The translations under genes were made by a program, and so were the position numbers. A stretch of 64,000 nucleotides of DNA from contig DASUOG010000011.1 of the NCBI GenBank assembly GCA_036276755.1, positions 3,125-67,124 of the forward strand, written 5' to 3'. The notes below the pieces were generated by a model. It ran no database searches. It was not told the origin of the DNA and saw nothing but the letters and a program-made list of their open reading frames with translations. Positions within the stretch are counted from its first letter, which is position 1; each line of letters opens with the position of its first letter. This DNA is from Candidatus Saccharimonadales bacterium (lineage in GTDB: Bacteria > Patescibacteriota > Saccharimonadia > Saccharimonadales > 2-12-FULL-41-12). This document shows, in pieces, positions 11,893 to 42,325 of this stretch.

Positions 11893-13230
11893 CTAGCAAC
11901 CCGGGTCATTAGCTGCCAAAACCGCTTTGATTTCCCGTCTGCGCAGAAAACTTCTTCTTGGAGTGTGGTTTAAGGCTCTTAGGAGCGCTTGTTCTCTTAT
12001 TTCGCCGGCTACGCGAGAAACCGTATCTCCCGCCGAACCTTGAGCGCTGACTCCTAACTCATGCAGGTCCCGCACCGGCCTGATTACCGATTCCAGAACA
12101 TCATCCGCTCCCGGGCCGAACGATTCACCCGTGATTACCTTCCTTAAGGAGCCCGAATATACCGCTGATATCCTTTCTCTAATACTATCCATGACGGTCT
12201 CGGGTTGATACCCGATTGCGCTTTGCAGAGGGCCAAGGAACGCCAGTGTTTCCTCGGCTGTGGCAAGATTTACATCATCAACACCCCTCCGCGCAAGCAG
12301 ATCGTCCAAGGCATGGGCAAAATCCATATACAATCCGCCTTTTACGGCTGTCGGTAATTCCAAGTTTGAGAGCTCATCGGCGGAGCCAGTCACGCCCAAG
12401 CCCAGCATGCACCTTTTGGCCAGAGCCGCCGTCAAAGAATCTCTCTTTGCTATTTTAGCCGAGAGCGCATCAACAGCTTCGTTGCCGTATGCCACCATCG
12501 TAGGCAGACTTAATGCCCTTACCGTACTATGGTCAGCGAAGGGTCTTTTATCCGCGTTTAAGATATTGCCGACGGTACTTTCAACTTCCTGTGCAGAACC
12601 GGCAAAATGCACCCTATCAAAAGGCAGGTCATGATTGGCGTGCACGGAAGTGTAGGCCATGTCATCGCTGGCCTTCTTGGCAAAAACCTTGACCGAACCG
12701 GCTGTGACGTCATCGAGCGTAAATCCTCTTGCGGAGTGTACTGGTATAGTTAATTCGCGTTTACCCGGTTTGCTTCCCTCTTTTTTGCTAAAATGCGGTG
12801 CATAACTACCTAAAGCACCTCCGGCTTGACCGTAAACTACCCTTGCCAAGCCAAATTTGCTTACCTCATCCGCACTGCTGATGATTATTATCGGCTGAGG
12901 TCCGTCCGCGATCTTATCGACATGTGAAAAATAATCTTTTATTTCATCTGCCGACCTCCCCCTGACTGCCATGATTTCACGCAAGGTTTCCCTATCAAGA
13001 GCATCTTCGCCCGCGGTTTCAACCGCAGAAAGAACAGTGGTACGGACTTGGGCCAGATCCGAAGTTGCCGAGTCGACCGTTGCTTCCGCGTCCGCTAAAA
13101 AACCGGATGCCGCCTGGTAAGACATTTCCGCCTGCTCTTTTACGGTTTCGGCGGCGGTAACTCTTAGTTGCGCCATAGCTAAATCAGTACCAAACCGTTC
13201 GCGCGCCTCACCGGGACCCAGATCCCCCAT
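11893..13230 (-). CDS. hypothetical 445-aa soluble protein (Ala/Asp/Glu-rich, no Walker A, no TM segment)
   Basis: A long ORF with a strong SD (AAGGAG 9-10 nt upstream of the ATG) and a TTGCAA-N17-TATCGT promoter-like sequence. It has no motif I recognise. It lies immediately downstream of clpP. Confidence 0.8.
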   Translation of the reverse strand: MGDLGPGEARERFGTDLAMAQLRVTAAETVKEQAEMSYQAASGFLADAEATVDSATSDLAQVRTTVLSAVETAGEDALDRETLREIMAVRGRSADEIKDYFSHVDKIADGPQPIIIISSADEVSKFGLARVVYGQAGGALGSYAPHFSKKEGSKPGKRELTIPVHSARGFTLDDVTAGSVKVFAKKASDDMAYTSVHANHDLPFDRVHFAGSAQEVESTVGNILNADKRPFADHSTVRALSLPTMVAYGNEAVDALSAKIAKRDSLTAALAKRCMLGLGVTGSADELSNLELPTAVKGGLYMDFAHALDDLLARRGVDDVNLATAEETLAFLGPLQSAIGYQPETVMDSIRERISAVYSGSLRKVITGESFGPGADDVLESVIRPVRDLHELGVSAQGSAGDTVSRVAGEIREQALLRALNHTPRRSFLRRREIKAVLAANDPGC

Positions 13231-13307: not shown

Positions 13308-13928
13308 TTATTTATTTTTAGGAGATTTTGTAAGGGTAGTTATGATTTCGTCAACAATACCATAATCTTTGGCTTCTTTAGCAGTCAGCCATTTGTCGCG
13401 CTCCATGTCACCATGGATTTTCTCGACTTTCTGGCCGGTGTTTTGGGCCATGATTTCTTCAAGCAGTTTTTTGACGCGCAAGGCTTCCTTCAGATCGATC
13501 TCCTGGTCGGTCACCTTGCCCCTGGTGCCGCTGGAAGGTTGATGGATCATAACGGTCGCATGCTGCAGCAGCGAACGTTTGCCCCTGGTGCCGCTGCTAA
13601 GCAGGAATGCGGCGGCGCTGGCCTGCACGCCGATACCGACGGTTTGAATATCATTTTTTACATACTGCATGGTATCGTAAATCGCCAACGCATCGTAAAC
13701 ACTACCGCCCGGACTGTTTATATAAAGCTTTATATCCTTGTTCGGGTTCTCGTTAGCCAGGAATAAAAGTTGGGCTACCACCAAGTTTGCGGTATGTTGG
13801 TTGACATCGGTGCCGAGAAAAATAATATTATCACGAAGCAACCGGCTGTAGATGTCATAAGCCCGCTCCATACGGCCCTCGGTTTCTATGACGGTCGGGA
13901 TCAATATCTGGCTTTTTGGTTCATTCAT
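13308..13928 (-). CDS. clpP: ATP-dependent Clp protease proteolytic subunit
   Basis: 206 aa with canonical ClpP blocks ([38 protein letters not shown]). Confidence 0.97.
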
Positions 13929-13948: not shown

Positions 13949-13975
13949 TTAGCACTCGGAAGTCAAGAGTGCCAA
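13949..13975 (-). promoter_or_regulatory. CIRCE-like inverted repeat (HrcA operator) overlapping the clpP promoter
   Basis: The plus strand reads TTAGCACTC-ggaagtcaa-GAGTGCCAA, against the consensus TTAGCACTC-N9-GAGTGCTAA. The spacer contains the -35 element TTGACT on the minus strand. TATAAT lies at 13942..13937, 8 nt before the clpP ATG. Confidence 0.8.
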
Positions 13976-21172: not shown

Positions 21173-21257
21173 TGGTGGGCGAGAAAGGACTTGAACCTTC
21201 ACGCCTTGCGGCACTAGTTCCTAAGACTAGCGTGTCTACCAATTCCACCACTCGCCC
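21173..21257 (-). tRNA. tRNA-Leu, anticodon UAG, class II long variable arm, encoded CCA
   Basis: The reverse complement reads GGGCGAG-TG-GTGGAATTGGTAGACAC-G-CTAGT-CTTAGGA-ACTAG-TGCCGCAAGGCGT-GAAGGTTCAAGTCCTTC-T-CTCGCCC-A-CCA. It has a 7-bp acceptor stem, the GTTCAAGTC T-loop, and the anticodon loop CT-TAG-GA. Confidence 0.93.
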
Positions 21258-31383: not shown

Positions 31384-32733
31384 CTATTTCTTTAAGTATG
31401 TATTAAGTGCTTCTTTTATGTTTGTAACCGGCTTTAGGATCTTGTCGGCCTTTCCTGTCAGCTTTGGCCCTATCACCGTGTCGAATCCGAGCTTTTTGGC
31501 TTCGGCTATGCGCTTATCGCCAAAGTTAACCCGGCGGACTTCGCCGGAGAGGCCGACTTCGCCGAACACCACCGCATTCCCTTTGAGCTGCAAGCCTTTG
31601 GCGGCCGAACCGATAGCCATGCATATCGCAAGATCCGCCGCCGGTTCGCTGATTCTGATGCCGCCGACGATATTGATGTAGATGTCCTGATCGGCGAGGT
31701 TCAACTTGGTGCGTCTTTCCAGCATGGCTACCAGCAGATTGACGCGGTTAAGGTCTATTCCGCTGGCGGCACGCTTAGGATAACCGTATGACGTTTTGTT
31801 GACCAAGGCCTGGACTTCGACCAATACCGGCCGCATGCCCTCCATGGTCGCCAATACTACCGATCCGTCGCTTTCCTGTCGTTCGGCTAATAAGCTGGCC
31901 GACGGGTTTTCTACTTGAACCAAGCCTTCGTTTTTCATCTCGAATATGCCCGCCTCATTGGTAGAGCCGAAACGGTTTTTGACGCTTCTGAGCAGTTTGA
32001 ATCCGCCGTAGCGGTCACCCTCCAGATTCAGTACTACATCAACCACATGCTCCAGGATTTTCGGTCCGGCTATCGAACCTTCTTTCGTAACATGACCGAC
32101 CAGAACAACCGCCGTATTCGCTCGTTTAGCTGCGTTCATTATCAGATGCGTGCTGTTGGTAATCTGGCTCACACTGCCGGCTGACGATGCCACGGCACCG
32201 ACCGTCATGGTCTGGATAGAATCAACGAACACGACGTCATAATCTTTCGAAGAAATGGTAACCGCGATGTCATCGGCGCTGGTAGATGTAGCCAAAGCCA
32301 GTTTGGAATTATCAACACCCAATCTATTGGCCCGTAAAGCTATCTGGTGCGCCGATTCCTCGCCGCTGACATATAAGACAGAGTTGTTTTTGGCAATGTT
32401 AGCAGCCGCTTGGAGTAACAAGGTGCTTTTACCGATTCCCGGCTGACCGGCGGTTAAGCAGATGCCACCTCGGACAAAGCCGCCGCCCAAGACATTATCG
32501 AAGTCTTTGATCCCGCTGGAAATCCGGCTCGAGGTTTCTTTTGATTTGGCATTTTTGGCTTCAATTGTTTTAAGAACATCCCCGGAACCAGCAGAGCCGC
32601 CGACGCTGACCAGCCCCGGTTCTTCCTGGATGGTGTTCCATTCACCGCACACGCTGCATCTCCCTGCCCATGCCGAATGCTGTGCGCCGCAGTTACTGCA
32701 GACGAACCTGGACGTTTGTTTTTTGGCTGCCAT
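31384..32733 (-). CDS. radA: DNA repair protein RadA/Sms
   Basis: Zn finger (CSNCGAQHSAWAGRCSVCGEW), Walker A (GQPGIGKST), the KNRFG motif and a Lon-like C-terminal domain. Confidence 0.96.
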   Translation of the reverse strand: MAAKKQTSRFVCSNCGAQHSAWAGRCSVCGEWNTIQEEPGLVSVGGSAGSGDVLKTIEAKNAKSKETSSRISSGIKDFDNVLGGGFVRGGICLTAGQPGIGKSTLLLQAAANIAKNNSVLYVSGEESAHQIALRANRLGVDNSKLALATSTSADDIAVTISSKDYDVVFVDSIQTMTVGAVASSAGSVSQITNSTHLIMNAAKRANTAVVLVGHVTKEGSIAGPKILEHVVDVVLNLEGDRYGGFKLLRSVKNRFGSTNEAGIFEMKNEGLVQVENPSASLLAERQESDGSVVLATMEGMRPVLVEVQALVNKTSYGYPKRAASGIDLNRVNLLVAMLERRTKLNLADQDIYINIVGGIRISEPAADLAICMAIGSAAKGLQLKGNAVVFGEVGLSGEVRRVNFGDKRIAEAKKLGFDTVIGPKLTGKADKILKPVTNIKEALNTYLKK

Positions 32734-32759: not shown

Positions 32760-33227
32760 TTATTCCGACGGGGGATTCTCGGGAGGATTTGTTTCTACTT
32801 CGCTAAGCACCCCCCGTACATAATCCTCGCTTGCCTCGCCTATGCGCGGTATCATACCCAAAGTGCCCTCCCTGACCGCTTTATAAAGGCCATTGTAAGA
32901 CAGGGTAGCGCCATCGATGGCAATATTGTATGGGAACTGCTCAAGGTCATCGGTTGGCTCCCGGAAAGTCCAGGCATTTTTAATCAGAGAATTCCAAGTC
33001 ATGGTAGCCACGCGACTTGACACGTCAGGATTACTTTCTGCATAGCCCTTAAAATAATCTTCATCTATCGGTATATCCGTGTCGTCCTCGGCTTTTACGT
33101 TAATCCCCATCGCCCTCCATATCCTGACCATCCGGTTCAACTGTGATAAACCCGCCTTGGACAAACCCTCACCGGAAAGAATCAGACGCGACGGTACACT
33201 CTCAAATCCATCTTTAAGATTGGCCAT
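32760..33227 (-). CDS. hypothetical 155-aa protein
   Basis: TATAAT lies 9 nt upstream of the ATG. No recognisable domain. Confidence 0.7.
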   Translation of the reverse strand: MANLKDGFESVPSRLILSGEGLSKAGLSQLNRMVRIWRAMGINVKAEDDTDIPIDEDYFKGYAESNPDVSSRVATMTWNSLIKNAWTFREPTDDLEQFPYNIAIDGATLSYNGLYKAVREGTLGMIPRIGEASEDYVRGVLSEVETNPPENPPSE

Positions 33228-33267
33228 AAGGTTACTATTATACTGTTATTTTGACGGATAAGCAATA

Positions 33268-34239
33268 CTATCTGATTGCCTTTTCATTGATACTATTGCT
33301 GTCCATAGCCTGGTAGAGTTCCTGCTGCTGGATGACCAGCTCGTTGCGTTCCTTGATAAGTTCATTGTAACGGTTTATCAGCTGTTTGGTCTCATTGACC
33401 AGAACATTATATTCGTCGATGGCATTGTTATAAGGGGAAACCTGACTGTTATATTCTTCTATCCGATCCTCCGCCAAAAGCCGGTTCAGTTCTTGCTGAC
33501 GCTCATTTATCTCTGTATTTTTAGCATCTAAAACGGCTTCGTTAGAGGTTATAGTCTGTTTTAAATCCGCTAATTGCCGTTCGTAAGCCTTAGCCTTGTT
33601 CCCGATATCGATGAATGTCTGCTCATAGTCTTCGGAGTAATCCACTATCTTGCTACGGTCATTGAAATATTTCTTGTAATGATTTTCAAGTTCAGGGTTC
33701 AGATTACGAACTTCCGTACCGAGAATAGAGTGTAATTCGGTCGGCACTACGCCGGGGTCCATGGCGCGATAGTTCTCAATAGTTTTCTTGATCCGCTCAT
33801 TATCCAGGGTTCTGAAGAAGTCGGCCGTCATCTTATCGACTTCCCGTCTCTCCTTGCTGCCGAGCCGTTCATACATGGCATGAAGGACTTCATGCGCCGC
33901 CGTAACTTCGACGACTCCGCTTAATCTTGGATCAGTTACATCAAGCAGATAGATCCCGTCTCCGTTTATGAAGCACCCGAGTACTATGGTCTGCTCCTGG
34001 GCCTTACAATGAGTATTAAACTCCTGTTTCCCATCAAGCTCCGGGTGATTGACATAAAAGACCCGGCGGGCGGTGTCCTTCATGGTCGTGTCATCGGCAA
34101 GTCCGGCTATGCGCGCACTCGGTTCATAACCCCGCAGATGCAACCAATCATAAATAGCCTGAGCGTTGGTAAAACCAAAGACGGCGACAGCCAGAAGCAA
34201 CACAACTATCAGCCAGCTTATCGTATTTTTTATGCGCAT
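33268..34239 (-). CDS. membrane-anchored HEXXH protein with a C-terminal coiled coil (putative metallopeptidase)
   Basis: N-terminal TM segment (ISWLIVVLLLAVAVFGF), the motif VTAAHEVLHAMYE, and a C-terminal heptad-rich region of about 120 aa. Confidence 0.75.
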   Translation of the reverse strand: MRIKNTISWLIVVLLLAVAVFGFTNAQAIYDWLHLRGYEPSARIAGLADDTTMKDTARRVFYVNHPELDGKQEFNTHCKAQEQTIVLGCFINGDGIYLLDVTDPRLSGVVEVTAAHEVLHAMYERLGSKERREVDKMTADFFRTLDNERIKKTIENYRAMDPGVVPTELHSILGTEVRNLNPELENHYKKYFNDRSKIVDYSEDYEQTFIDIGNKAKAYERQLADLKQTITSNEAVLDAKNTEINERQQELNRLLAEDRIEEYNSQVSPYNNAIDEYNVLVNETKQLINRYNELIKERNELVIQQQELYQAMDSNSINEKAIR

Positions 34240-34273: not shown

Positions 34274-36754
34274 TTAGGCTACGGCGGCGGCTTCTTTTTT
34301 GCCGGAGAAGAAAATCTTGCCTTTTTTTACACCGATATTTATGACCGTGCCTTTGCCGTATCTGCCGGACAATAGTCCGTCTGAAATCTCATCTTCCACG
34401 GTATCTTGCAGGAGCCGGCGCATTGGACGCACGCCGTTCTGCGGATCATAACCTTTCTCGACCAGTAGCTTCTTGGCGGACTCACTGAGCCTGACGGCGA
34501 GACCCTGGCGTACCAACCGATCGTTAAGCTCCTTAAGCTGGAGATCCAGTATCCTGGCGACTTCGGGCTTGGTGAGCGCTCTAAAAACGATTGTCTTATC
34601 TATCCTGTTTAGAAGTTCCGGCCGCATGGTTTTTTTCAAACTTTCCATCACGTTTTCCTTGTTCGATTCATGGAGTTCTACGAGATCCTCTATATCTTTT
34701 CTGGATTCTACTCTAAAGCCGAATTGCGATTCCTTCTGCAGCTTTTCGGCGCCTATATTGCTGGTCATTATCACTATGGTGTTCGAAAAATCAATTTCCC
34801 GGCCTTTGCCGTCAGTCAACCGTCCGTCTTCCAATATTTGCAGCATCATATTGAAAACGTCGGGATGAGCCTTCTCAATCTCATCGAACAGTACCAAGCT
34901 GTACGGCTGGCGGCGAATTTTATCAGTCAATTGTCCGCCGTCGTCATATCCTACATAGCCGGCAGGCGCCCCCATCAGGCGGGAAACATTGTGGTGCTCA
35001 CCGAATTCACTCATGTCTATCTTTATCAGAGCGTTTTCACTGCCGAAGAATTCCCGAGCTAAAACTCTAGCGAGTTCAGTCTTACCGACGCCGGTAGGAC
35101 CCAGGAAGATGAACGAGCCGATAGGCCGTTTATCGTCGGTAACTCCGCTTCGGCTGCGGCGTACTGCCGAAGATACCGCTGCAATAGCTTCTTGCTGACC
35201 GATGATGTATTTGCTTAACGTTTTCTCCAGATTCAATAAATAGCGGGCCTCACTCCTGATTACCTTCGACACCGGCACACCGGTAATCCGGGCAACCACC
35301 TCCGCTACATCATCACTGGTAAGTTTGATGATTTTCCCATCATTATATTTGGATTGCAGCTTGATGATTTCTTCGCTCAGCCGGGAAGCCTTGGTCTTCA
35401 GATTGGCCGCGGTCTCATAATCCTCAGCGGTGGCGGCATCTTCTATCCTGACCTGCAATAAGCGAAGTTCCTTTTGGGCCTTGCGTAATTCAGGCGGCGT
35501 CTTGCCTTTGCCGACACGTACATATGCCGAAGCTTCATCTATAAGGTCGATAGCCTTGTCCGGCATGAACCGGTCGTTGATGTATCTTTTGGCAAACCGT
35601 ACCGTGTCTTCGATTACCTCGTCGCTGATTTTTACATTATGAAACGATTCATAATGCTTCCTCAGACCGCGCAATATACCGACGGTCTCGGTGTCGGTAG
35701 CTTCGGGGACTATAACCGGCTGGAAACGCCTTTCTAAAGCCGCGTCTTTTTCTACGTGTCTGGTGTATTCGGCTATGGTGGTAGCGCCGATAAGCTGTAT
35801 CTTGCCTCTGGCCAATGCCGGTTTGAGCATATTGCCGGCATCCATAGCGCCTTCTGCTGCACCGGCGCCGACTATCAGGTGTATCTCGTCGACAAATACG
35901 ATTGTTTTCTTATCCTGTTCCAGCTCGGTCATGACTTTTTTCAGCCTGTCTTCAAATTCACCGCGATACTTGGTACCGGCAATCATGCTGGCCAGGTCAA
36001 GCATTATCAAACGTTTGCCGATGAGGCTGTCCGGGACATCCTCCGCAATGATACGGGCCGCGAGTCCTTCCACTATAGCGGTCTTCCCTACTCCGGGTTC
36101 ACCGATGAGTACGGGATTATTCTTGGTACGCCGGCTTAATATTGTTATGACTCGTGCCAGCTGGGCATCCCGTCCGATTACCGGATCAAGCCCGCCCTGG
36201 CGAGCCTTGGCGGTAAGATCGGTCCCAAAAAAGTCCAGGGCGGTTTTGCGGCCTTTTTTCTGTTTGCGTGCCGCGCTCAGATGGCTGCTGTTACCCTGCT
36301 GACGATTTAGAAACTGTTCCAGTTCGCCGAGCAAAGGCTCTACGGCTACGCCCATGGAACGCAGCATTTCACTGGCACGGGCGTTCTTTTGGCTTAAGAT
36401 GCTAAACAGTATATGTTCGGTACCGCAGTTTTCCTGGTTGTAATCCTGTGCAATCTCATAAGCCATGTTCAACGTGAGTTTTGCAACCTCGCTCAGCCCC
36501 TTGGAAACAACCGATCCGAGGGGTGCCGGATTCACGTTCAGGGCCAGCTTGGCCTTCTGCAAGGTAACGCCGGCATTATCCAGCATCTTCGCACCTATGG
36601 AGGCTTCCTGCGCTAAAACGCCGAGCAATAAGTGCTCGGTACCGACATAAGGACTACCGGTACTTCTGGCAATACCGTCCGCATTACGTAGACTGGCTAA
36701 TGCGTTCTCGGTCAGATGATTCAAAAAATCTTGGAAATCTGCTGATGGAGGCAT
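34274..36754 (-). CDS. clpC: ATP-dependent Clp protease ATP-binding subunit ClpC
   Basis: Clp_N repeats and two AAA+ modules (GEPGVGKT, GPTGVGKT). I placed the start at MPPSADF (ATG 36754), 6 nt after a TATAAT box. The track TTG start at 36781 lies inside the CIRCE element. Confidence 0.95.
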   Translation of the reverse strand: MPPSADFQDFLNHLTENALASLRNADGIARSTGSPYVGTEHLLLGVLAQEASIGAKMLDNAGVTLQKAKLALNVNPAPLGSVVSKGLSEVAKLTLNMAYEIAQDYNQENCGTEHILFSILSQKNARASEMLRSMGVAVEPLLGELEQFLNRQQGNSSHLSAARKQKKGRKTALDFFGTDLTAKARQGGLDPVIGRDAQLARVITILSRRTKNNPVLIGEPGVGKTAIVEGLAARIIAEDVPDSLIGKRLIMLDLASMIAGTKYRGEFEDRLKKVMTELEQDKKTIVFVDEIHLIVGAGAAEGAMDAGNMLKPALARGKIQLIGATTIAEYTRHVEKDAALERRFQPVIVPEATDTETVGILRGLRKHYESFHNVKISDEVIEDTVRFAKRYINDRFMPDKAIDLIDEASAYVRVGKGKTPPELRKAQKELRLLQVRIEDAATAEDYETAANLKTKASRLSEEIIKLQSKYNDGKIIKLTSDDVAEVVARITGVPVSKVIRSEARYLLNLEKTLSKYIIGQQEAIAAVSSAVRRSRSGVTDDKRPIGSFIFLGPTGVGKTELARVLAREFFGSENALIKIDMSEFGEHHNVSRLMGAPAGYVGYDDGGQLTDKIRRQPYSLVLFDEIEKAHPDVFNMMLQILEDGRLTDGKGREIDFSNTIVIMTSNIGAEKLQKESQFGFRVESRKDIEDLVELHESNKENVMESLKKTMRPELLNRIDKTIVFRALTKPEVARILDLQLKELNDRLVRQGLAVRLSESAKKLLVEKGYDPQNGVRPMRRLLQDTVEDEISDGLLSGRYGKGTVINIGVKKGKIFFSGKKEAAAVA

Positions 36755-36770
36755 GCCCCTATTATACCAA

Positions 36771-36797
36771 TTAGCACTCAATATGCAAGAGTGCCAA
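36771..36797 (-). promoter_or_regulatory. CIRCE-like inverted repeat (HrcA operator) overlapping the clpC promoter
   Basis: The plus strand reads TTAGCACTC-aatatgcaa-GAGTGCCAA. The minus-strand spacer contains the -35 element TTGCAT, followed by 16 nt and then TATAAT at 36766..36761. Confidence 0.8.
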
Positions 36798-36838
36798 AAT
36801 TGTACTGTTTATCCCTGTTGACGCTTCGCTCGTGTCTA

Positions 36839-36863
36839 CGAAACAGTCCCCGGGACTGTTTCG
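36839..36863 (-). terminator. perfect 25-nt palindrome downstream of nusA (hairpin without a U-tract)
   Basis: CGAAACAGTCCC-C-GGGACTGTTTCG, 12 nt after the nusA stop. Neither strand has a flanking T-run, so its function as a terminator is uncertain. Confidence 0.45.
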
Positions 36864-36874
36864 GATCAAGAGTG

Positions 36875-38077
36875 CTAATTTGGATTTTTTTCTTGCTTGG
36901 ATTCGGGCTGTTCGTCGCCGTGTTCTTCTATGGCTTCGAGTAGGCTGGATTCCAATTGTTCCTTCTTCTTTAGTTTCTGGCCGCCCTTGGGTTTAGAGGT
37001 AGAAGGCTCGGTCTTCGGCGTTTCCTTTTCGCCGCCTCCGCTCTCGGACACTATGTCAAGCTCATATCCGGTCAGCTTGCTGGCTAGCCGTACATTCTGT
37101 CCATTCTTGCCGATAGCGATACTTAACTGGTCTTCAGGCACCATGATGACAGCTTTTTTCTCCGCTTCATCTATATTTACGTTCGCTACTTTGGTCGGAC
37201 TCAGGGCATTTTCAATAAACTGCTGGGGTGATTCATTCCACACTATAATGTCTATCTTCTCTTGCTCACCTACTTCGCTCATCACAGCGTTTACGCGCGT
37301 ACCGTGACCGCCCACGAAAGTTCCTACCGGATCGACTCCCGGCACCGTGCTGGCGACCGCTATCTTACTGCGCACACCGGCTTCGCGGGCTATAGCCTTT
37401 ATGGATACTGCGCCGCTTTCCATCTCGGGCACTTCCGCGCGGAACAGCCACTCCATGAATTCAGTATTACCGCGGGAGACCACAAGTTGAGGACCGCGAG
37501 ATGTGCGTTCCACATCTTTTAAATAGATCTTCAGGCGCTGTCCGGGATAGTATTTTTCGCCTTGGATCTGCTCGCTAGCCGGCATGATAGCCTGTGTCTT
37601 ACCCAGATCCAAACGTACAATACGACCTTCCACGCGCGAAACTACGCCATTGATCACCGTGCCGATTTTGTCCTGGAACTCATTGATAATGATTTCGCGT
37701 TCTGCTTCGCGTAACCTTTGCAGGATTACCTGCTTAGCAGTCTGGGCAGCTACCCGGCCAAAGGCCTCCGGCTGTTCCTCTATCTCTACTACATCGCCGG
37801 CTTTGGCACCTTTTTTGTATTTCTGTGCATCCGTAACGGTTATTTCGAAATGCTCGTCTTCGATATTTTCGACGACTTCTTTGGAAGTATAAATACTGAT
37901 TGTGCCGGTATTAAGATTTATCTCCGTGCGGATTTCTTGTTCGCGCTCACCGAAATCCTTTCGATAAGCGGCGGCCAAGGCCTGCTCAACCACTTCTTTG
38001 ACCGAATCTTCAGGTAAGCTCTTCTCTTCGGCGATGGATTTGATAACCACTGCCAGCTGCTTAAAATCTAATTCCAT
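36875..38077 (-). CDS. nusA: transcription termination/antitermination factor NusA
   Basis: NusA N-terminal, S1 and two KH domains (IAIGKNGQNVRLASKLTG). It has an acidic/lysine-rich C-terminal tail. Confidence 0.96.
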   Translation of the reverse strand: MELDFKQLAVVIKSIAEEKSLPEDSVKEVVEQALAAAYRKDFGEREQEIRTEINLNTGTISIYTSKEVVENIEDEHFEITVTDAQKYKKGAKAGDVVEIEEQPEAFGRVAAQTAKQVILQRLREAEREIIINEFQDKIGTVINGVVSRVEGRIVRLDLGKTQAIMPASEQIQGEKYYPGQRLKIYLKDVERTSRGPQLVVSRGNTEFMEWLFRAEVPEMESGAVSIKAIAREAGVRSKIAVASTVPGVDPVGTFVGGHGTRVNAVMSEVGEQEKIDIIVWNESPQQFIENALSPTKVANVNIDEAEKKAVIMVPEDQLSIAIGKNGQNVRLASKLTGYELDIVSESGGGEKETPKTEPSTSKPKGGQKLKKKEQLESSLLEAIEEHGDEQPESKQEKNPN

Positions 38078-38201: not shown

Positions 38202-39710
38202 CTATTTTTCGGGTTCGGTTTCGCGTTCGGGATATAATCCGGTTTCCCTGATAGCTTCCGCCCCTTCGTTCAGAGCCTGTTCAAATTGGCTTCTGGCTAA
38301 TTTTAATTCCCCCTCCAATCTTTCGATCCGGTCATACGCCCGGCTAGCTCTGGCGGTAGCGAACCACATATTTTGCCGGGAACGTTCCGCTTCAGTCTGA
38401 GCGCGAAGCTCCGGATCCCTGGCTATCCTTACCGCCTGAAGCGCCCGTCGGAGCGCGGCTCCGCCCCATGCGCCGCCGTATACGTCGTTTTTTAAATACT
38501 CTTCTATTTCCTTAGGCAGACGTTCCAGTAGTAAGCTGCCTCTTACGAAAGCTATCTCGCCGGCTTCCTGCTTGGCTTTTATCTCTTCAAACCACCGGTG
38601 TTGGAGCTTTAGCTGCTCGTCTGTCCATTGCGGAATATCGCCTTTTACTTCTCTATCTGCCTGCTCCGTTCCAGCTTGTGACTCCGCATATACGCTCAAG
38701 TCAAAGGCATATCGTCTTTTCGTAGCGATGTATAATTTGTCAATCGCATAGGTTTCGATCTGACGGATACGTTCCTTTGTCAAACCAAGCCTGTATCCAG
38801 CCTCGTCTAGAGTATGCACGTCGGCGTATCTACGGCCCAGGACATCGAACAGTAACTCGGCGCCGGATCTTTCGCGGCCCGTCGGGGATTTGTCTTCAGC
38901 GAATTCTTCATCAGAGAACTCATCCACAGATGGTGCTTCTTCAGACATTTCTTCTTCTAAAGCTTCCTCTTTGGATAGGCCCAAGCCGGTGCGAAGATTT
39001 AATACTTTGCGTTCCCTATGGGTAAGTCCGGCTTGCTCCAGCCATTGATCCAGCAATAACTTATCAAGTATTTCATCCTCGCTTATTCCGTAACTTTCCG
39101 CCGCCACCAAACGGTTAAGCGTACCTGTCTCGCTCTCCGGATCCTCAACGGGCTCCACTGCTTCTTCTACGGGCGAGAAGTCCCCCGGCGGCAGGCCGTG
39201 TAGCACCTTTTTACTCTTACTGCTCACCGGTGGCAGAAGCTTGGATTCCGTCATCAGGTGATCCATGATTTTTGCGACAGCATTGGCGAATATAGTCACA
39301 GCGTTCTTTTTGGCAGGCTTTTTTACCCTTCTAGCGCCTTCGAGCGTCGCCAGACAACCCATATGCATGACGTCTTCCAGGGTAAGGTCATCTCGTGTGG
39401 CGATTTCATCCCTCTGGGCGTATTTATATATCCATGACAGGCGCGTGGCGATCAAGGCCTCGCTGGCCGTTGGATCGCCAGCTTTGGCACCGGCTATCAT
39501 CTCTTGCATCTCCGCCAGTGGGACACCAGGTCGCGGGCGGAAATGCAAACGTGCATCCGGCATTATGCCGGTAATTGCTTGGATCTGCCGCGCCTGGGCA
39601 TCCAAATCATCTTCAAACTCTACTTGCGGCATCGGCAACTCACGCCGATGAACCATAGGTTCGGCTTCAAATTGCACCTCCGGCGAAGGAATATCGTAAT
39701 AAGTCCCCAT
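38202..39710 (-). CDS. divergent sigma-70-like protein with an acidic insertion and a ~190-aa C-terminal extension
   Basis: Region 4.1/4.2-like segments (LTHRERKVLNLRTGL ... HTLDEAGYRLGLTKERIRQIETYAIDKLY). A degenerate region 2-like segment (ALIATRLSWIYKYAQR...LEDVMHMGCLATLEGARRV...TIFANAVAKIMDHL). I placed the start at MGTYYDIPS (ATG 39710). The track start at 39818 is rejected. Confidence 0.7.
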   Translation of the reverse strand: MGTYYDIPSPEVQFEAEPMVHRRELPMPQVEFEDDLDAQARQIQAITGIMPDARLHFRPRPGVPLAEMQEMIAGAKAGDPTASEALIATRLSWIYKYAQRDEIATRDDLTLEDVMHMGCLATLEGARRVKKPAKKNAVTIFANAVAKIMDHLMTESKLLPPVSSKSKKVLHGLPPGDFSPVEEAVEPVEDPESETGTLNRLVAAESYGISEDEILDKLLLDQWLEQAGLTHRERKVLNLRTGLGLSKEEALEEEMSEEAPSVDEFSDEEFAEDKSPTGRERSGAELLFDVLGRRYADVHTLDEAGYRLGLTKERIRQIETYAIDKLYIATKRRYAFDLSVYAESQAGTEQADREVKGDIPQWTDEQLKLQHRWFEEIKAKQEAGEIAFVRGSLLLERLPKEIEEYLKNDVYGGAWGGAALRRALQAVRIARDPELRAQTEAERSRQNMWFATARASRAYDRIERLEGELKLARSQFEQALNEGAEAIRETGLYPERETEPEK

Positions 39711-39717
39711 GTATATA

Positions 39718-39769
39718 TTATTACAATAATATATCAAGTTTGTCAATATATTCTTCCCTGTTGTACAAT
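39718..39769. promoter_or_regulatory. back-to-back divergent promoters with overlapping -35 boxes
   Basis: Minus strand: TTGACA (39746..39741)-N17-TAATAA (39723..39718), then 7 nt to the ATG at 39710. Plus strand: TTGTCA (39740..39745)-N18-TACAAT (39764..39769), then 6 nt to the ATG at 39776. Confidence 0.5.
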
Positions 39770-39775
39770 GCCAGG

Positions 39776-42325
39776 ATGAGCAAAAAGGTGAAGAGACTTT
39801 ATTCGGATATAAAACCAAACCATTACGACCTGGGGCTGTCTTTGGACATAGATAAACGGCTTTTCTCCGGAACGGTGAAGATCAGGTTTAAAAAGACAGG
39901 CCGGCCTAGCAAACGGATAACATTTCACCAAAAAGACCTTAAGTTCACCGCCACTAAATTGAAAAGCCTTTCTAAAGATAAAGAGATCGTCATCAAGCGT
40001 ATAAATACCCAAAGAAGCCTGGATGAAGTAAGACTGCACAGTGACGAAACACTGTTTCCGGGGGAGTACGAAGCGTATCTGGAATTCGCCGGTCGGATAA
40101 CCGACCCGATGCACGGCCTGTACCCCTGCTATTTCGACCACGAAGGCAAGCAGAAAGTCATGCTGGCTACCCAATTCGAAAGCCATCATACCCGCGAAGT
40201 CTTCCCGTGTATAGACGAGCCGGAAGCCAAAGCAACGTTCCAATTATCGCTGGATGCCCCGGCCGGTTTAACCATCCTTTCCAACACCCCGCCGAAAGAT
40301 CAAGCCAAGTCCGGGCAGCGGCTTATGACCACCTTTGAAAAAACACCGGTTATGAGTTCCTATCTGTTGGCTTTCATCATCGGCGAACTCCACTGCGTAG
40401 AAGCAGAGACGAAGACCGGCATTACCATGCGTACCTGGGCGACGGTTGCCCAGCCCGAAAAATTCCTGGAATACGCGAACAATGAAGCAGTGTCGGCCTT
40501 GGAGTTCTTTAGCGATTATTTCCAAACCCCTTATCCGCTTGTCAAATGCGACCAGGTAGCCCTGCCCGATTTTGAGAGCGGAGCCATGGAAAACTGGGGA
40601 CTTATCACTTACCGGGAGATTGCGCTACTGGCCGATCCGGACAACCGTTCGCTGTCCACCGAACAGTATATTTCGATGGTCATCGCCCACGAGATATCGC
40701 ATCAGTGGTTCGGCAACCTAGTTACCATGAAGTGGTGGGATGACCTCTGGCTGAACGAAAGCTTCGCGAGCCTGATGGAGCATATCGCGTTGGATCATAC
40801 CCACCCAGACTGGCACTGGTGGGAACACTATGTAATATCCGATGTCCTGTCCGCGGCAAACCGGGATATATATAAGGATGTCCAGCCGGTCGGCGTGAAT
40901 GTATCGCATCCGGACGACATACACACGCTATTCGATCCGGCCATCGTCTATGCCAAAGGCGGCCGTTTGCTCAAGATGATGCGCGAGTTCATAGGTGATA
41001 CGGCTTTTAGAAAAGGATTGAAGAATTATTTTACGCAGAATGCTTATAAAAACGCTGAACGAAACGATCTATGGGAAGCATTATCTTCCAGTAGCAATGC
41101 CGCGGTCTCATCTCTTATGACACCTTGGATCGAACAATCTGGCATGCCGGTACTTACGGTAAAAAAAACCGGCAATACCATCAGTTTGAGCCAGGAAAGG
41201 TTTTTGCTCGAGGGAGAAGACAGTGGGGCAATCTGGCCCATCGCTCTGCTTTCGGACAAGCCGCTGGCTGAAAAACTCCTTGTTAAGAAAACGGACGAAT
41301 TAAGCGCGAGCAAACCGGTAATTTTTAATGTATTGGGCAGCGGACATTATTTGGTCAATTATAAAAACAGGGATGAAAAACAGGCCCTGGCCAAGGCTAT
41401 CGCCGATCGATCGATACCTACCGAAGGACGGATTATCCGTCTGAACGATATACTCCTGCTGGCTAGAAGGGGTGACACCTCACTGATTGAAGCTCTGGAC
41501 ATAATCAAGAATTGTCAGAACGAGCCGCGGGAAGCAGTGTGGAATATGATGAGCCGGGTGGTCGGGCTTGTACGTATGCTTACCGAGGGTGACGAAAAAA
41601 CCGAGGCCGGGATCAAGAAATTAAGGGTCAAAATGGCGAACAATCAGTATACAAGACTCGGCTGGGAACAAAAGCCCGGCGAAGATCCGAATGACACTCT
41701 GCTGAGACAAACCGTGATCGGGATAATGCTCGCCGGAGAATACAAAGAGGTTATAGATAAATCTATAGCCATGTACGAGCAGACCAAAGATATAAGCCGT
41801 CTGCCAGCAGAAATCAGAACCGTGATATTAACCGCGGTCGTGAGATTCGGTAAAGCTAAAGAAATAGATAACCTGCTAAAAATATATGAGCAATCCGCCA
41901 ACCCGGACCTCAAACTTGCCATCAGTCTAGCATTATGCGAAACGCGCGATCCGGCAATCGGCCAAAAGATAATCAAACGCACTATCTCAGAAGACGGAAT
42001 CGCCCGTCCACAGGATATCTTCCGGTGGTACGCTTACCTCATGCGTAACCAATATACTCGGCAAACCGCCTGGCAGTGGATGACCATTGATTGGCAAAGA
42101 CTGGAAAAGCTTTTCGGAGGCTCCAAGAGCTTGGATTACCTGCCGGTATATTCAGCCGCGCCTCTGACCACATTCGAGTGGTATGAAAAATACGAGGACT
42201 TTTTCAAGCCGCTGCTCCATAGACGCCAATTGGAACGGAATATCAAAATAGGCTTTTCGGAAATCAAAGCACGCATAGAGTGGCGCAAGCGCGAGGAACC
42301 GAAACTAAAGCGATATTTCGACTAG
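39776..42325 (+). CDS. pepN: aminopeptidase N (M1 family)
   Basis: The GAMENWG exopeptidase motif and HEISHQWFGNLVT-X-WLNESFA zinc site, plus an ERAP1-like C-terminal domain. I placed the start at MSKKVKRLY (39776). Confidence 0.93.
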   Translation: MSKKVKRLYSDIKPNHYDLGLSLDIDKRLFSGTVKIRFKKTGRPSKRITFHQKDLKFTATKLKSLSKDKEIVIKRINTQRSLDEVRLHSDETLFPGEYEAYLEFAGRITDPMHGLYPCYFDHEGKQKVMLATQFESHHTREVFPCIDEPEAKATFQLSLDAPAGLTILSNTPPKDQAKSGQRLMTTFEKTPVMSSYLLAFIIGELHCVEAETKTGITMRTWATVAQPEKFLEYANNEAVSALEFFSDYFQTPYPLVKCDQVALPDFESGAMENWGLITYREIALLADPDNRSLSTEQYISMVIAHEISHQWFGNLVTMKWWDDLWLNESFASLMEHIALDHTHPDWHWWEHYVISDVLSAANRDIYKDVQPVGVNVSHPDDIHTLFDPAIVYAKGGRLLKMMREFIGDTAFRKGLKNYFTQNAYKNAERNDLWEALSSSSNAAVSSLMTPWIEQSGMPVLTVKKTGNTISLSQERFLLEGEDSGAIWPIALLSDKPLAEKLLVKKTDELSASKPVIFNVLGSGHYLVNYKNRDEKQALAKAIADRSIPTEGRIIRLNDILLLARRGDTSLIEALDIIKNCQNEPREAVWNMMSRVVGLVRMLTEGDEKTEAGIKKLRVKMANNQYTRLGWEQKPGEDPNDTLLRQTVIGIMLAGEYKEVIDKSIAMYEQTKDISRLPAEIRTVILTAVVRFGKAKEIDNLLKIYEQSANPDLKLAISLALCETRDPAIGQKIIKRTISEDGIARPQDIFRWYAYLMRNQYTRQTAWQWMTIDWQRLEKLFGGSKSLDYLPVYSAAPLTTFEWYEKYEDFFKPLLHRRQLERNIKIGFSEIKARIEWRKREEPKLKRYFD

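Follow-up and report, generated by a model that had tools for sequence, protein, structure and literature searches.

A predicted HrcA operator fused to the clpC promoter of a Saccharibacteria genome

The best-described counterparts of the element analyzed here are the HrcA/CIRCE system of Bacillus subtilis and the CtsR regulon of Bacillota. In B. subtilis, CIRCE is located at or downstream of the transcription start site of the genes repressed by HrcA, while clpC of Bacillus belongs to the CtsR regulon. At clpP of Streptococcus salivarius, HrcA reportedly acts jointly with CtsR. The CIRCE reported upstream of that clp protease gene is a precedent for the arrangement considered below (Chastanet & Msadek 2003, J Bacteriol 185:683, cited in PMC3842655). 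According to the B. subtilis model, HrcA is released from its operators through the titration of GroEL, as summarized in PMC7737663, and the HrcA regulon of Mycoplasma pneumoniae comprises dnaK, dnaJ, groESL, clpB, lon, pepA, and pip (PMC7737663). How transcription is regulated in Saccharibacteria and other CPR bacteria has hardly been explored; a full-text search found no published link of these bacteria to HrcA/CIRCE, and the TM7x transcriptome papers contained no usable evidence of co-regulation.

The window, that is, the whole 64-kb stretch of Saccharibacteria DNA that was analyzed (Table 1), contains upstream of clpC an inverted repeat that is, with high probability, a functional CIRCE operator for HrcA fused to a sigma-70-type clpC promoter, as judged from its sequence and its recurrence in related genomes. 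On the forward strand, positions 36771..36779 read TTAGCACTC, the spacer at 36780..36788 reads aatatgcaa, and positions 36789..36797 read GAGTGCCAA, so that the element appears on the clpC gene strand as TTGGCACTC-ttgcatatt-GAGTGCTAA, with 16 nt between the end of its proximal arm and the clpC ATG. When the entire window was searched for the CIRCE consensus TTAGCACTC-N9-GAGTGCTAA with up to three mismatches, only two matches were found, the clpC copy and a companion in the clpP promoter, against an expectation of 0.02 from dinucleotide-preserving shuffles, and none of 100 shuffled windows contained two. In both operators the GCACTC-N9-GAGTGC core is perfect and the 9-nt spacing exact. A preliminary description of this DNA had reported the sequence, coordinates, and spacings of the clpC operator, all of which proved correct on rechecking, and had noted that it has the same arms as the clpP copy, with which a direct comparison of the two sequences agrees. 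Every feature of a CIRCE operator that could be looked for was present in the clpC element, and those of a CtsR regulon were absent.

Table 1. Positions of the operator, promoter elements, and neighboring genes within the window
Feature	Position	Strand	Description
CIRCE-type HrcA operator (predicted)	36771..36797	-	27-base inverted repeat; one outer-position mismatch to consensus
-35-like TTGCAT	36783..36788	-	inside the operator spacer; 3/6 matches to TTGACA
Extended -10, TGgTATAAT	36761..36769	-	TATAAT 36766..36761, TG 36769..36768; 16 nt after the -35
clpC start codon ATG	36752..36754	-	6 nt after the -10; opens MPPSADFQDF
clpC	34274..36754	-	826 aa; Pfam Clp_N x2, AAA, AAA_lid_9, AAA_2, ClpB_D2-small
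Hairpin GAAACAGTCCC-g-GGGACTGTTTC	36840..36862	-	perfect 11-bp stem, between nusA and the operator
Orphan CIRCE half-site, TTAGCACTC then TTGAT	36870..36878	-	73 nt upstream of the complete operator; overlaps the stop codon of nusA
nusA	36875..38077	-	upstream of clpC; NusA_N, S1, KH (Pfam); stop TAG 36877..36875
Companion CIRCE, clpP promoter	13949..13975	-	TTGGCACTC-TTGACTTCC-GAGTGCTAA; arms identical to the clpC copy
clpP	13308..13928	-	Pfam CLP_protease, E = 8.5e-74
radA	31384..32733	-	downstream of clpC, beyond two ORFs

The predicted product of the gene behind this operator is a class I Clp/Hsp100 unfoldase and a ClpC-type partner of ClpP. It has two AAA+ modules, Clp_N, a short middle domain, and a ClpP-docking loop in D2; this loop, QFGFRV, aligns with YVGFNV of ClpC from Cytobacillus gottheilii, and because the hydrophobic-G-F loop for ClpP docking is absent from a ClpB of Saccharibacteria (L092), its presence assigns the protein to the ClpC type. 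A search among 185,579 species genomes returned metagenome-assembled genomes of Candidatus Saccharibacteria/Saccharimonadales as the top relatives of this ClpC (up to 85% identity), followed by ClpC proteins of Bacillota, the best cultured ones, at 46-49% identity.

The promoter of clpC is interlaced with the operator. The -35-like hexamer lies in the operator spacer, and on the gene strand the operator is followed by ttgg, TATAAT, the 6-nt stretch aggggc, and ATG. This arrangement had already been claimed in the preliminary description and was confirmed here, orthologues having TTGAC[N] at the place of the -35; the description had, however, overlooked the extended form of the -10, TGgTATAAT. 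A generic scan of positions 36600..37000 called neither a promoter nor a terminator. Since TTGCAT agrees with the consensus hexamer at three of six positions, such a scan misses the clpC promoter, which is assigned from its extended -10 and from the geometry seen in the orthologues. In the companion promoter, TTGACT is present in the CIRCE spacer, followed after 18 nt by TATAAT and after a further 8 nt by the clpP ATG. The 27 non-redundant clpC upstream regions that were compared share a constant architecture, with a -35 TTGAC[N] located at one or the other end of the 9-nt operator spacer and a promoter spacer of 16-19 nt before a TAnnnT -10 element.

Because the ATG follows only 6 nt after the -10, the clpC mRNA is probably leaderless and would begin with the A of the ATG, as appears to be the case in at least seven orthologues. 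The same 6-nt gap was observed in six other clpC loci and a gap of 7 nt in one more, and among the 27 non-redundant clpC promoters, 10, that of the window being one, place the ATG 6-10 nt past the -10; in the others, a leader of 37-186 nt carries a Shine-Dalgarno sequence. A mechanically called clpC ORF begins further upstream, at the TTG at 36781, and would give a product of 835 aa. This start was rejected because alignment of the homologues places their N-termini at the ATG at 36754, where the opening MPPSADFQDF corresponds to MSPASDFQDF, MTPNSADFQDF, and similar sequences in relatives; the nine codons that begin at the TTG consist of operator and -10 sequence and are missing from the homologues.

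Conservation of the element was assessed in the 11 Saccharibacteria clpC loci that were recovered by protein similarity. A perfect-core CIRCE is found 44-183 nt upstream of the clpC start in 10 of them, mostly right after nusA, and 19 further CIRCE-clpC loci are among the matches listed in the pattern scan of the genome collection that is described below. The closest relative of the window (L001, the one with 85% ClpC identity) has its -35 in another register and a 48-nt leader, and still retains the operator; retention amid a remodeled promoter argues for selection on the operator itself and not on the surrounding sequence. The earlier proposal that a CIRCE/HrcA operator is embedded in the clpC promoter under selection, not by coincidence, is thus borne out by its persistence in the orthologues and by the constant position of the -10 across the phylum. 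The idea that the palindrome arose by chance and has no function could draw on the short length of the site and on nothing further, and it is effectively refuted by the two occurrences where 0.02 are expected and by the conservation in 10 of 11 relatives. Nor is clpC a fixed member of the regulon, since in one locus (L009, JBASLU010000061.1) clpC has a leaderless-type promoter without a CIRCE, and so clpC can evidently drop out. In the same Saccharimonadales species, dnaK keeps its CIRCE (JBASLU010000020.1).

The space between nusA and the operator may carry traces of rearrangement. The order nusA-CIRCE-clpC is repeated in L001, and a NusA-like C-terminal coding sequence is present just upstream of the operator in six other loci. 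The half-site that overlaps the nusA stop codon in the window is the sole other occurrence of TTAGCACTC there. It was considered as part of a second operator, and this was rejected because a matching right arm could not be found, for which reason the half-site is treated as an orphan; it is possibly the relic of an older operator position, and in L001 a complete operator lies directly after the nusA stop, at the place that the half-site occupies in the window. The hairpin between the half-site and the operator is unique in the window, and the 88-nt region that includes it folds at -23.2 kcal/mol (z = -2.4). It has no U-tract and was not called by the terminator scan, and it is a probable nusA terminator of the kind that lacks a U-tract. 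Taken together, the half-site and the hairpin suggest an insertion or duplication that displaced the operator.

The inverted repeat might alternatively work as RNA, either as the terminator hairpin of nusA or as a stability element in the 5'-UTR of a clpC mRNA that is started upstream, possibly with the TTG at 36781 as its initiation codon. An influence on mRNA stability has also been reported for CIRCE of B. subtilis, and such a role would suit the position of CIRCE directly after the nusA stop in some relatives, the failure to call a canonical terminator in the nusA-clpC intergenic region, and the mechanical ORF that begins at the TTG. We nevertheless consider it improbable. The sequence of the arms, beyond their mere ability to pair, is conserved in front of six unrelated gene classes, which marks a site bound by a protein; nusA is already followed by the separate and far stronger hairpin; the TTG-initiated codons are not found in the homologues; and the -10 stands at a fixed distance from the spacer TTGAC in 80 of the 82 sites among the matches listed.

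The breadth of the predicted regulon emerged when the genome collection was scanned for GCACTC-TTGAC-N4-GAGTGC, a pattern that gave at least 120 loci, about 82 of them in Saccharibacteria. Among the matches listed, the first gene downstream of the Saccharibacteria sites encodes DnaK in 26 cases, ClpC in 19, a short HrcA in 14, Hsp20 in 11, ClpP in 9, and ClpB in 1, with 2 sites unassigned. A TAnnnT element is placed 16-19 nt after the spacer TTGACN at 80 of these 82 sites (matches listed, all with enough flank), compared with 4-10 of the same 82 at control offsets, and the TTGAC of the spacer is therefore regarded as a true -35. A CIRCE also precedes groES-groEL in 78 of 80 Saccharibacteria loci. 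At these loci, the -35 TTGAC precedes the left arm of CIRCE by about 5 nt, and it is the -10 (TATAGT, TATTAT, or TATACT) that the spacer holds; given this difference from clpC, the CIRCE spacer hosts either promoter hexamer within a single phylum. Often a tandem CIRCE of more degenerate sequence lies 3-4 nt further downstream at groESL.

Two points of the preliminary description are amended by this survey. The regulon had been called Clp-centered on the strength of the two clp promoters, but the same operator stands before the chaperone genes and hrcA of the phylum (dnaK, hrcA, hsp20, clpB, and groESL), so the regulon is better described as a broad proteostasis regulon, in which clp genes have been added to the classical HrcA set. 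At the canonical members hrcA, dnaK, and groESL, the motif was found in relatives of the source genome. The A-to-G exchange in the arm, which had been proposed for comparison with groESL and dnaK, is not special to the clp copies but an ordinary variant: of 77 hrcA operators, 15 contain TTGGCACTC and 11 contain GAGTGCCAA, and the consensus of the phylum, YTRGCACTC-N9-GAGTGCYAR, whose outer arm positions vary freely, allows it. Outside the CPR, a CIRCE whose spacer begins with TTGAC was observed before a Clp ATPase gene of Fervidobacterium, groES of Dehalococcoides, groEL of a cyanobacterium, and hrcA of Streptococcus mitis (two loci), and the design with the -35 in the spacer is accordingly recurrent across phyla.

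The repressor that would act on these operators is itself unusual. HrcA of Saccharibacteria and other Patescibacteria has about 234 aa (range about 225-250), not the approximately 340 aa of the B. subtilis protein. It matches both PF01628 (HrcA) and PF03444 (HrcA_DNA-bdg) of Pfam, the former only at profile positions of about 108-215, which is the second half, and about 100 residues that follow the winged helix are missing by comparison with the canonical C-terminal region. For a profile built from twelve short HrcAs, the match to the winged-helix domain (residues 16-100) of HrcA from Thermotoga maritima (1STZ) had E = 5e-24. The hhalign comparison with a full-length streptococcal HrcA aligned only the N-terminal 75 residues, and the missing segment is for this reason not precisely placed; it may be the inserted dimerizing domain of the T. 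maritima structure. With these roughly 100 residues of the C-terminal region absent, dimerization and GroEL dependence of the short HrcA may differ from the B. subtilis model.

The genome collection contains at least 555 relatives of the short HrcA, and the best 80 of these are all from Saccharibacteria or Patescibacteria. Within the best 80, a CIRCE with up to three mismatches was found upstream of hrcA in 77 of the 79 cases whose upstream sequence is long enough, and the other two have perfect cores, a pattern that is read as classical autoregulation. In two assemblies, JBBSJF01 and CAWENB01, such an hrcA was found together with a CIRCE-clpC locus. Neither hrcA nor dnaK, hsp20, groES, or groEL was detected in the window by Pfam and tblastn searches, and hrcA is presumably present elsewhere in the source genome, as its relatives indicate. 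The shortening of the protein and the failure to find hrcA in the window could be taken as hints that a different regulator recognizes the CIRCE-like palindrome in this phylum. We regard this as unlikely, given that the winged helix of the short HrcA is close to that of T. maritima HrcA, that the operator is present on hrcA itself in the proportion just stated, and that dnaK, groESL, and hrcA are precisely the canonical HrcA set. It is less likely still that the operator is a decaying relic which regulates nothing because the source genome has lost hrcA. Besides the missing gene in the 64-kb window, the drift of the spacer -35 to TTGCAT and the nearby orphan half-site, an indication that operators do decay at this locus, could be cited for such a loss, but the two operators of the window have the same arms and retain perfect 6-bp cores, hrcA occurs widely in Saccharibacteria, and the weakness of the -35 is offset by the extended -10.

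CtsR, the regulator of clpC in Bacillota, left no trace in the window. The preliminary description had stated that there is no CtsR-type direct repeat at clpC, and a pattern search agrees, extending the statement to the clpP promoter: GGTCAAA-N3-GGTCAAA was not found near either promoter, and although the window contains 11 matches at three mismatches, against 6.2 expected, none of them falls in a promoter. It had likewise stated that no ctsR-mcsA-mcsB genes precede clpC, and this stands as well, for nusA occupies their place and tblastn of the window with CtsR, McsA, and McsB of C. gottheilii as queries gave no significant match. Some parallels with the CtsR regulon of Bacillota (the ctsR-mcsA-mcsB-clpC operon, clpP, and clpE) are nevertheless clear. 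The targets clpC and clpP are shared with the Saccharibacteria regulon, the logic of a stress-released repressor that overlaps the promoter is the same, and in both loci clpC is followed by radA, while the operator and the repressor differ and nusA stands before clpC in the window. In contrast to clpP of S. salivarius, where both repressors are involved, no CtsR system is detectable in the window, and HrcA would be the sole regulator. Between clpC and radA, the otherwise Bacillota-like arrangement is interrupted by two ORFs of 323 and 155 aa (32760..34239, minus strand; gaps of 26-40 nt), which matched no family and are probably co-transcribed.

For clpC, we infer HrcA binding, repression, the position of the transcription start site, and GroEL feedback. 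Assuming a start site at the A of the ATG, about 7 nt past the -10, the operator would extend from about -43 to -17, its 9-nt spacer would supply the -35, and its proximal arm would end 4 nt short of the -10. Because the operator covers the -35 and borders the -10, an HrcA dimer bound to it would occlude RNA polymerase and keep clpC off in the absence of stress, and the genes downstream of clpC, through radA, may be silenced as well. Under proteotoxic stress, by analogy with B. subtilis, GroEL/ES would be titrated from HrcA, the activity of the repressor would be lost, and the freed promoter would permit derepression of clpC along with clpP, dnaK, hrcA, hsp20, and groESL. Feedback through GroEL is plausible in Saccharibacteria because groESL belongs to the same regulon. 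Since a leaderless transcript excludes the operator, the operator would act on DNA only, and control would be exerted purely at the initiation of transcription.

The likeness to the B. subtilis HrcA/CIRCE system lies in a shared inverted repeat, whose 9-bp arms flank a 9-nt spacer, in the same repressor family, and in the autoregulation of hrcA and the inclusion of groESL in the regulon, which makes GroEL feedback possible. The differences are that the targets of HrcA in Saccharibacteria include clpC, which in Bacillus is left to CtsR, that the operator in the window overlaps the -35 and promoter-spacer region, that the clpC mRNA is probably leaderless, and that the repressor of the phylum is much shorter. 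With the Mollicutes, which are also genome-reduced, Saccharibacteria would share the use of HrcA/CIRCE as one dedicated regulator of both chaperones and AAA+ proteases or unfoldases (PMC7737663). The two groups belong to different phyla, differ in operator-promoter architecture, and have different targets, the Lon protease and the Hsp100 ClpB in Mollicutes as opposed to the ClpC-ClpP pair and a small heat-shock protein in Saccharibacteria. One repressor would have taken on proteases in addition to chaperones convergently in both. The mechanism proposed for the clpC operator is a known one and not new, and HrcA control of proteases has precedents; what the locus adds is a Clp protease predicted to stand under a regulator that is normally limited to chaperones.

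On a broader reading, which we hold to be reasonably probable though less secure than the assignment of the clpC operator itself, the truncated HrcA would serve as the single master repressor of DnaK, GroESL, Hsp20, ClpB, and ClpC-ClpP, replacing CtsR and acting through operators that are fused to promoter hexamers. The CIRCE spacer would provide the -35 at clpC, clpP, dnaK, hrcA, and hsp20 and the -10 at groESL, and leaderless transcripts would leave regulation wholly to the occlusion of promoters. The analysis defines a compact regulon that is predictable from sequence (hrcA, dnaK, groESL, hsp20, clpB, clpC, and clpP) and a promoter model for a host-dependent, genome-reduced phylum, namely TTGAC, 16-19 nt, and TAnnnT, often in front of a leaderless gene. 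Such compact, stress-responsive promoter-operator cassettes could be of use in the new genetic systems for Saccharibacteria.

Some further observations concern the surroundings of the clp genes. The usual gene order is tig-clpP-clpX, but in the window the place of clpX directly downstream of clpP is taken by an ORF of 445 aa (11893..13230, minus strand) that had zero Pfam or NCBIfam matches. A ClpX was not encountered anywhere in the window, and ClpC may be the main or sole partner of ClpP in the source bacterium. An Rfam scan of the window detected a single tRNA (21176..21257) and no RNA family at the clpC locus. Near nusA, an ORF of 538 aa (38202..39818, minus strand) contains sigma-70 region 4 and only a weak ECF-type region 2, and its product, which scores far under the cut-offs for RpoD, may be an unusual sigma-like factor.
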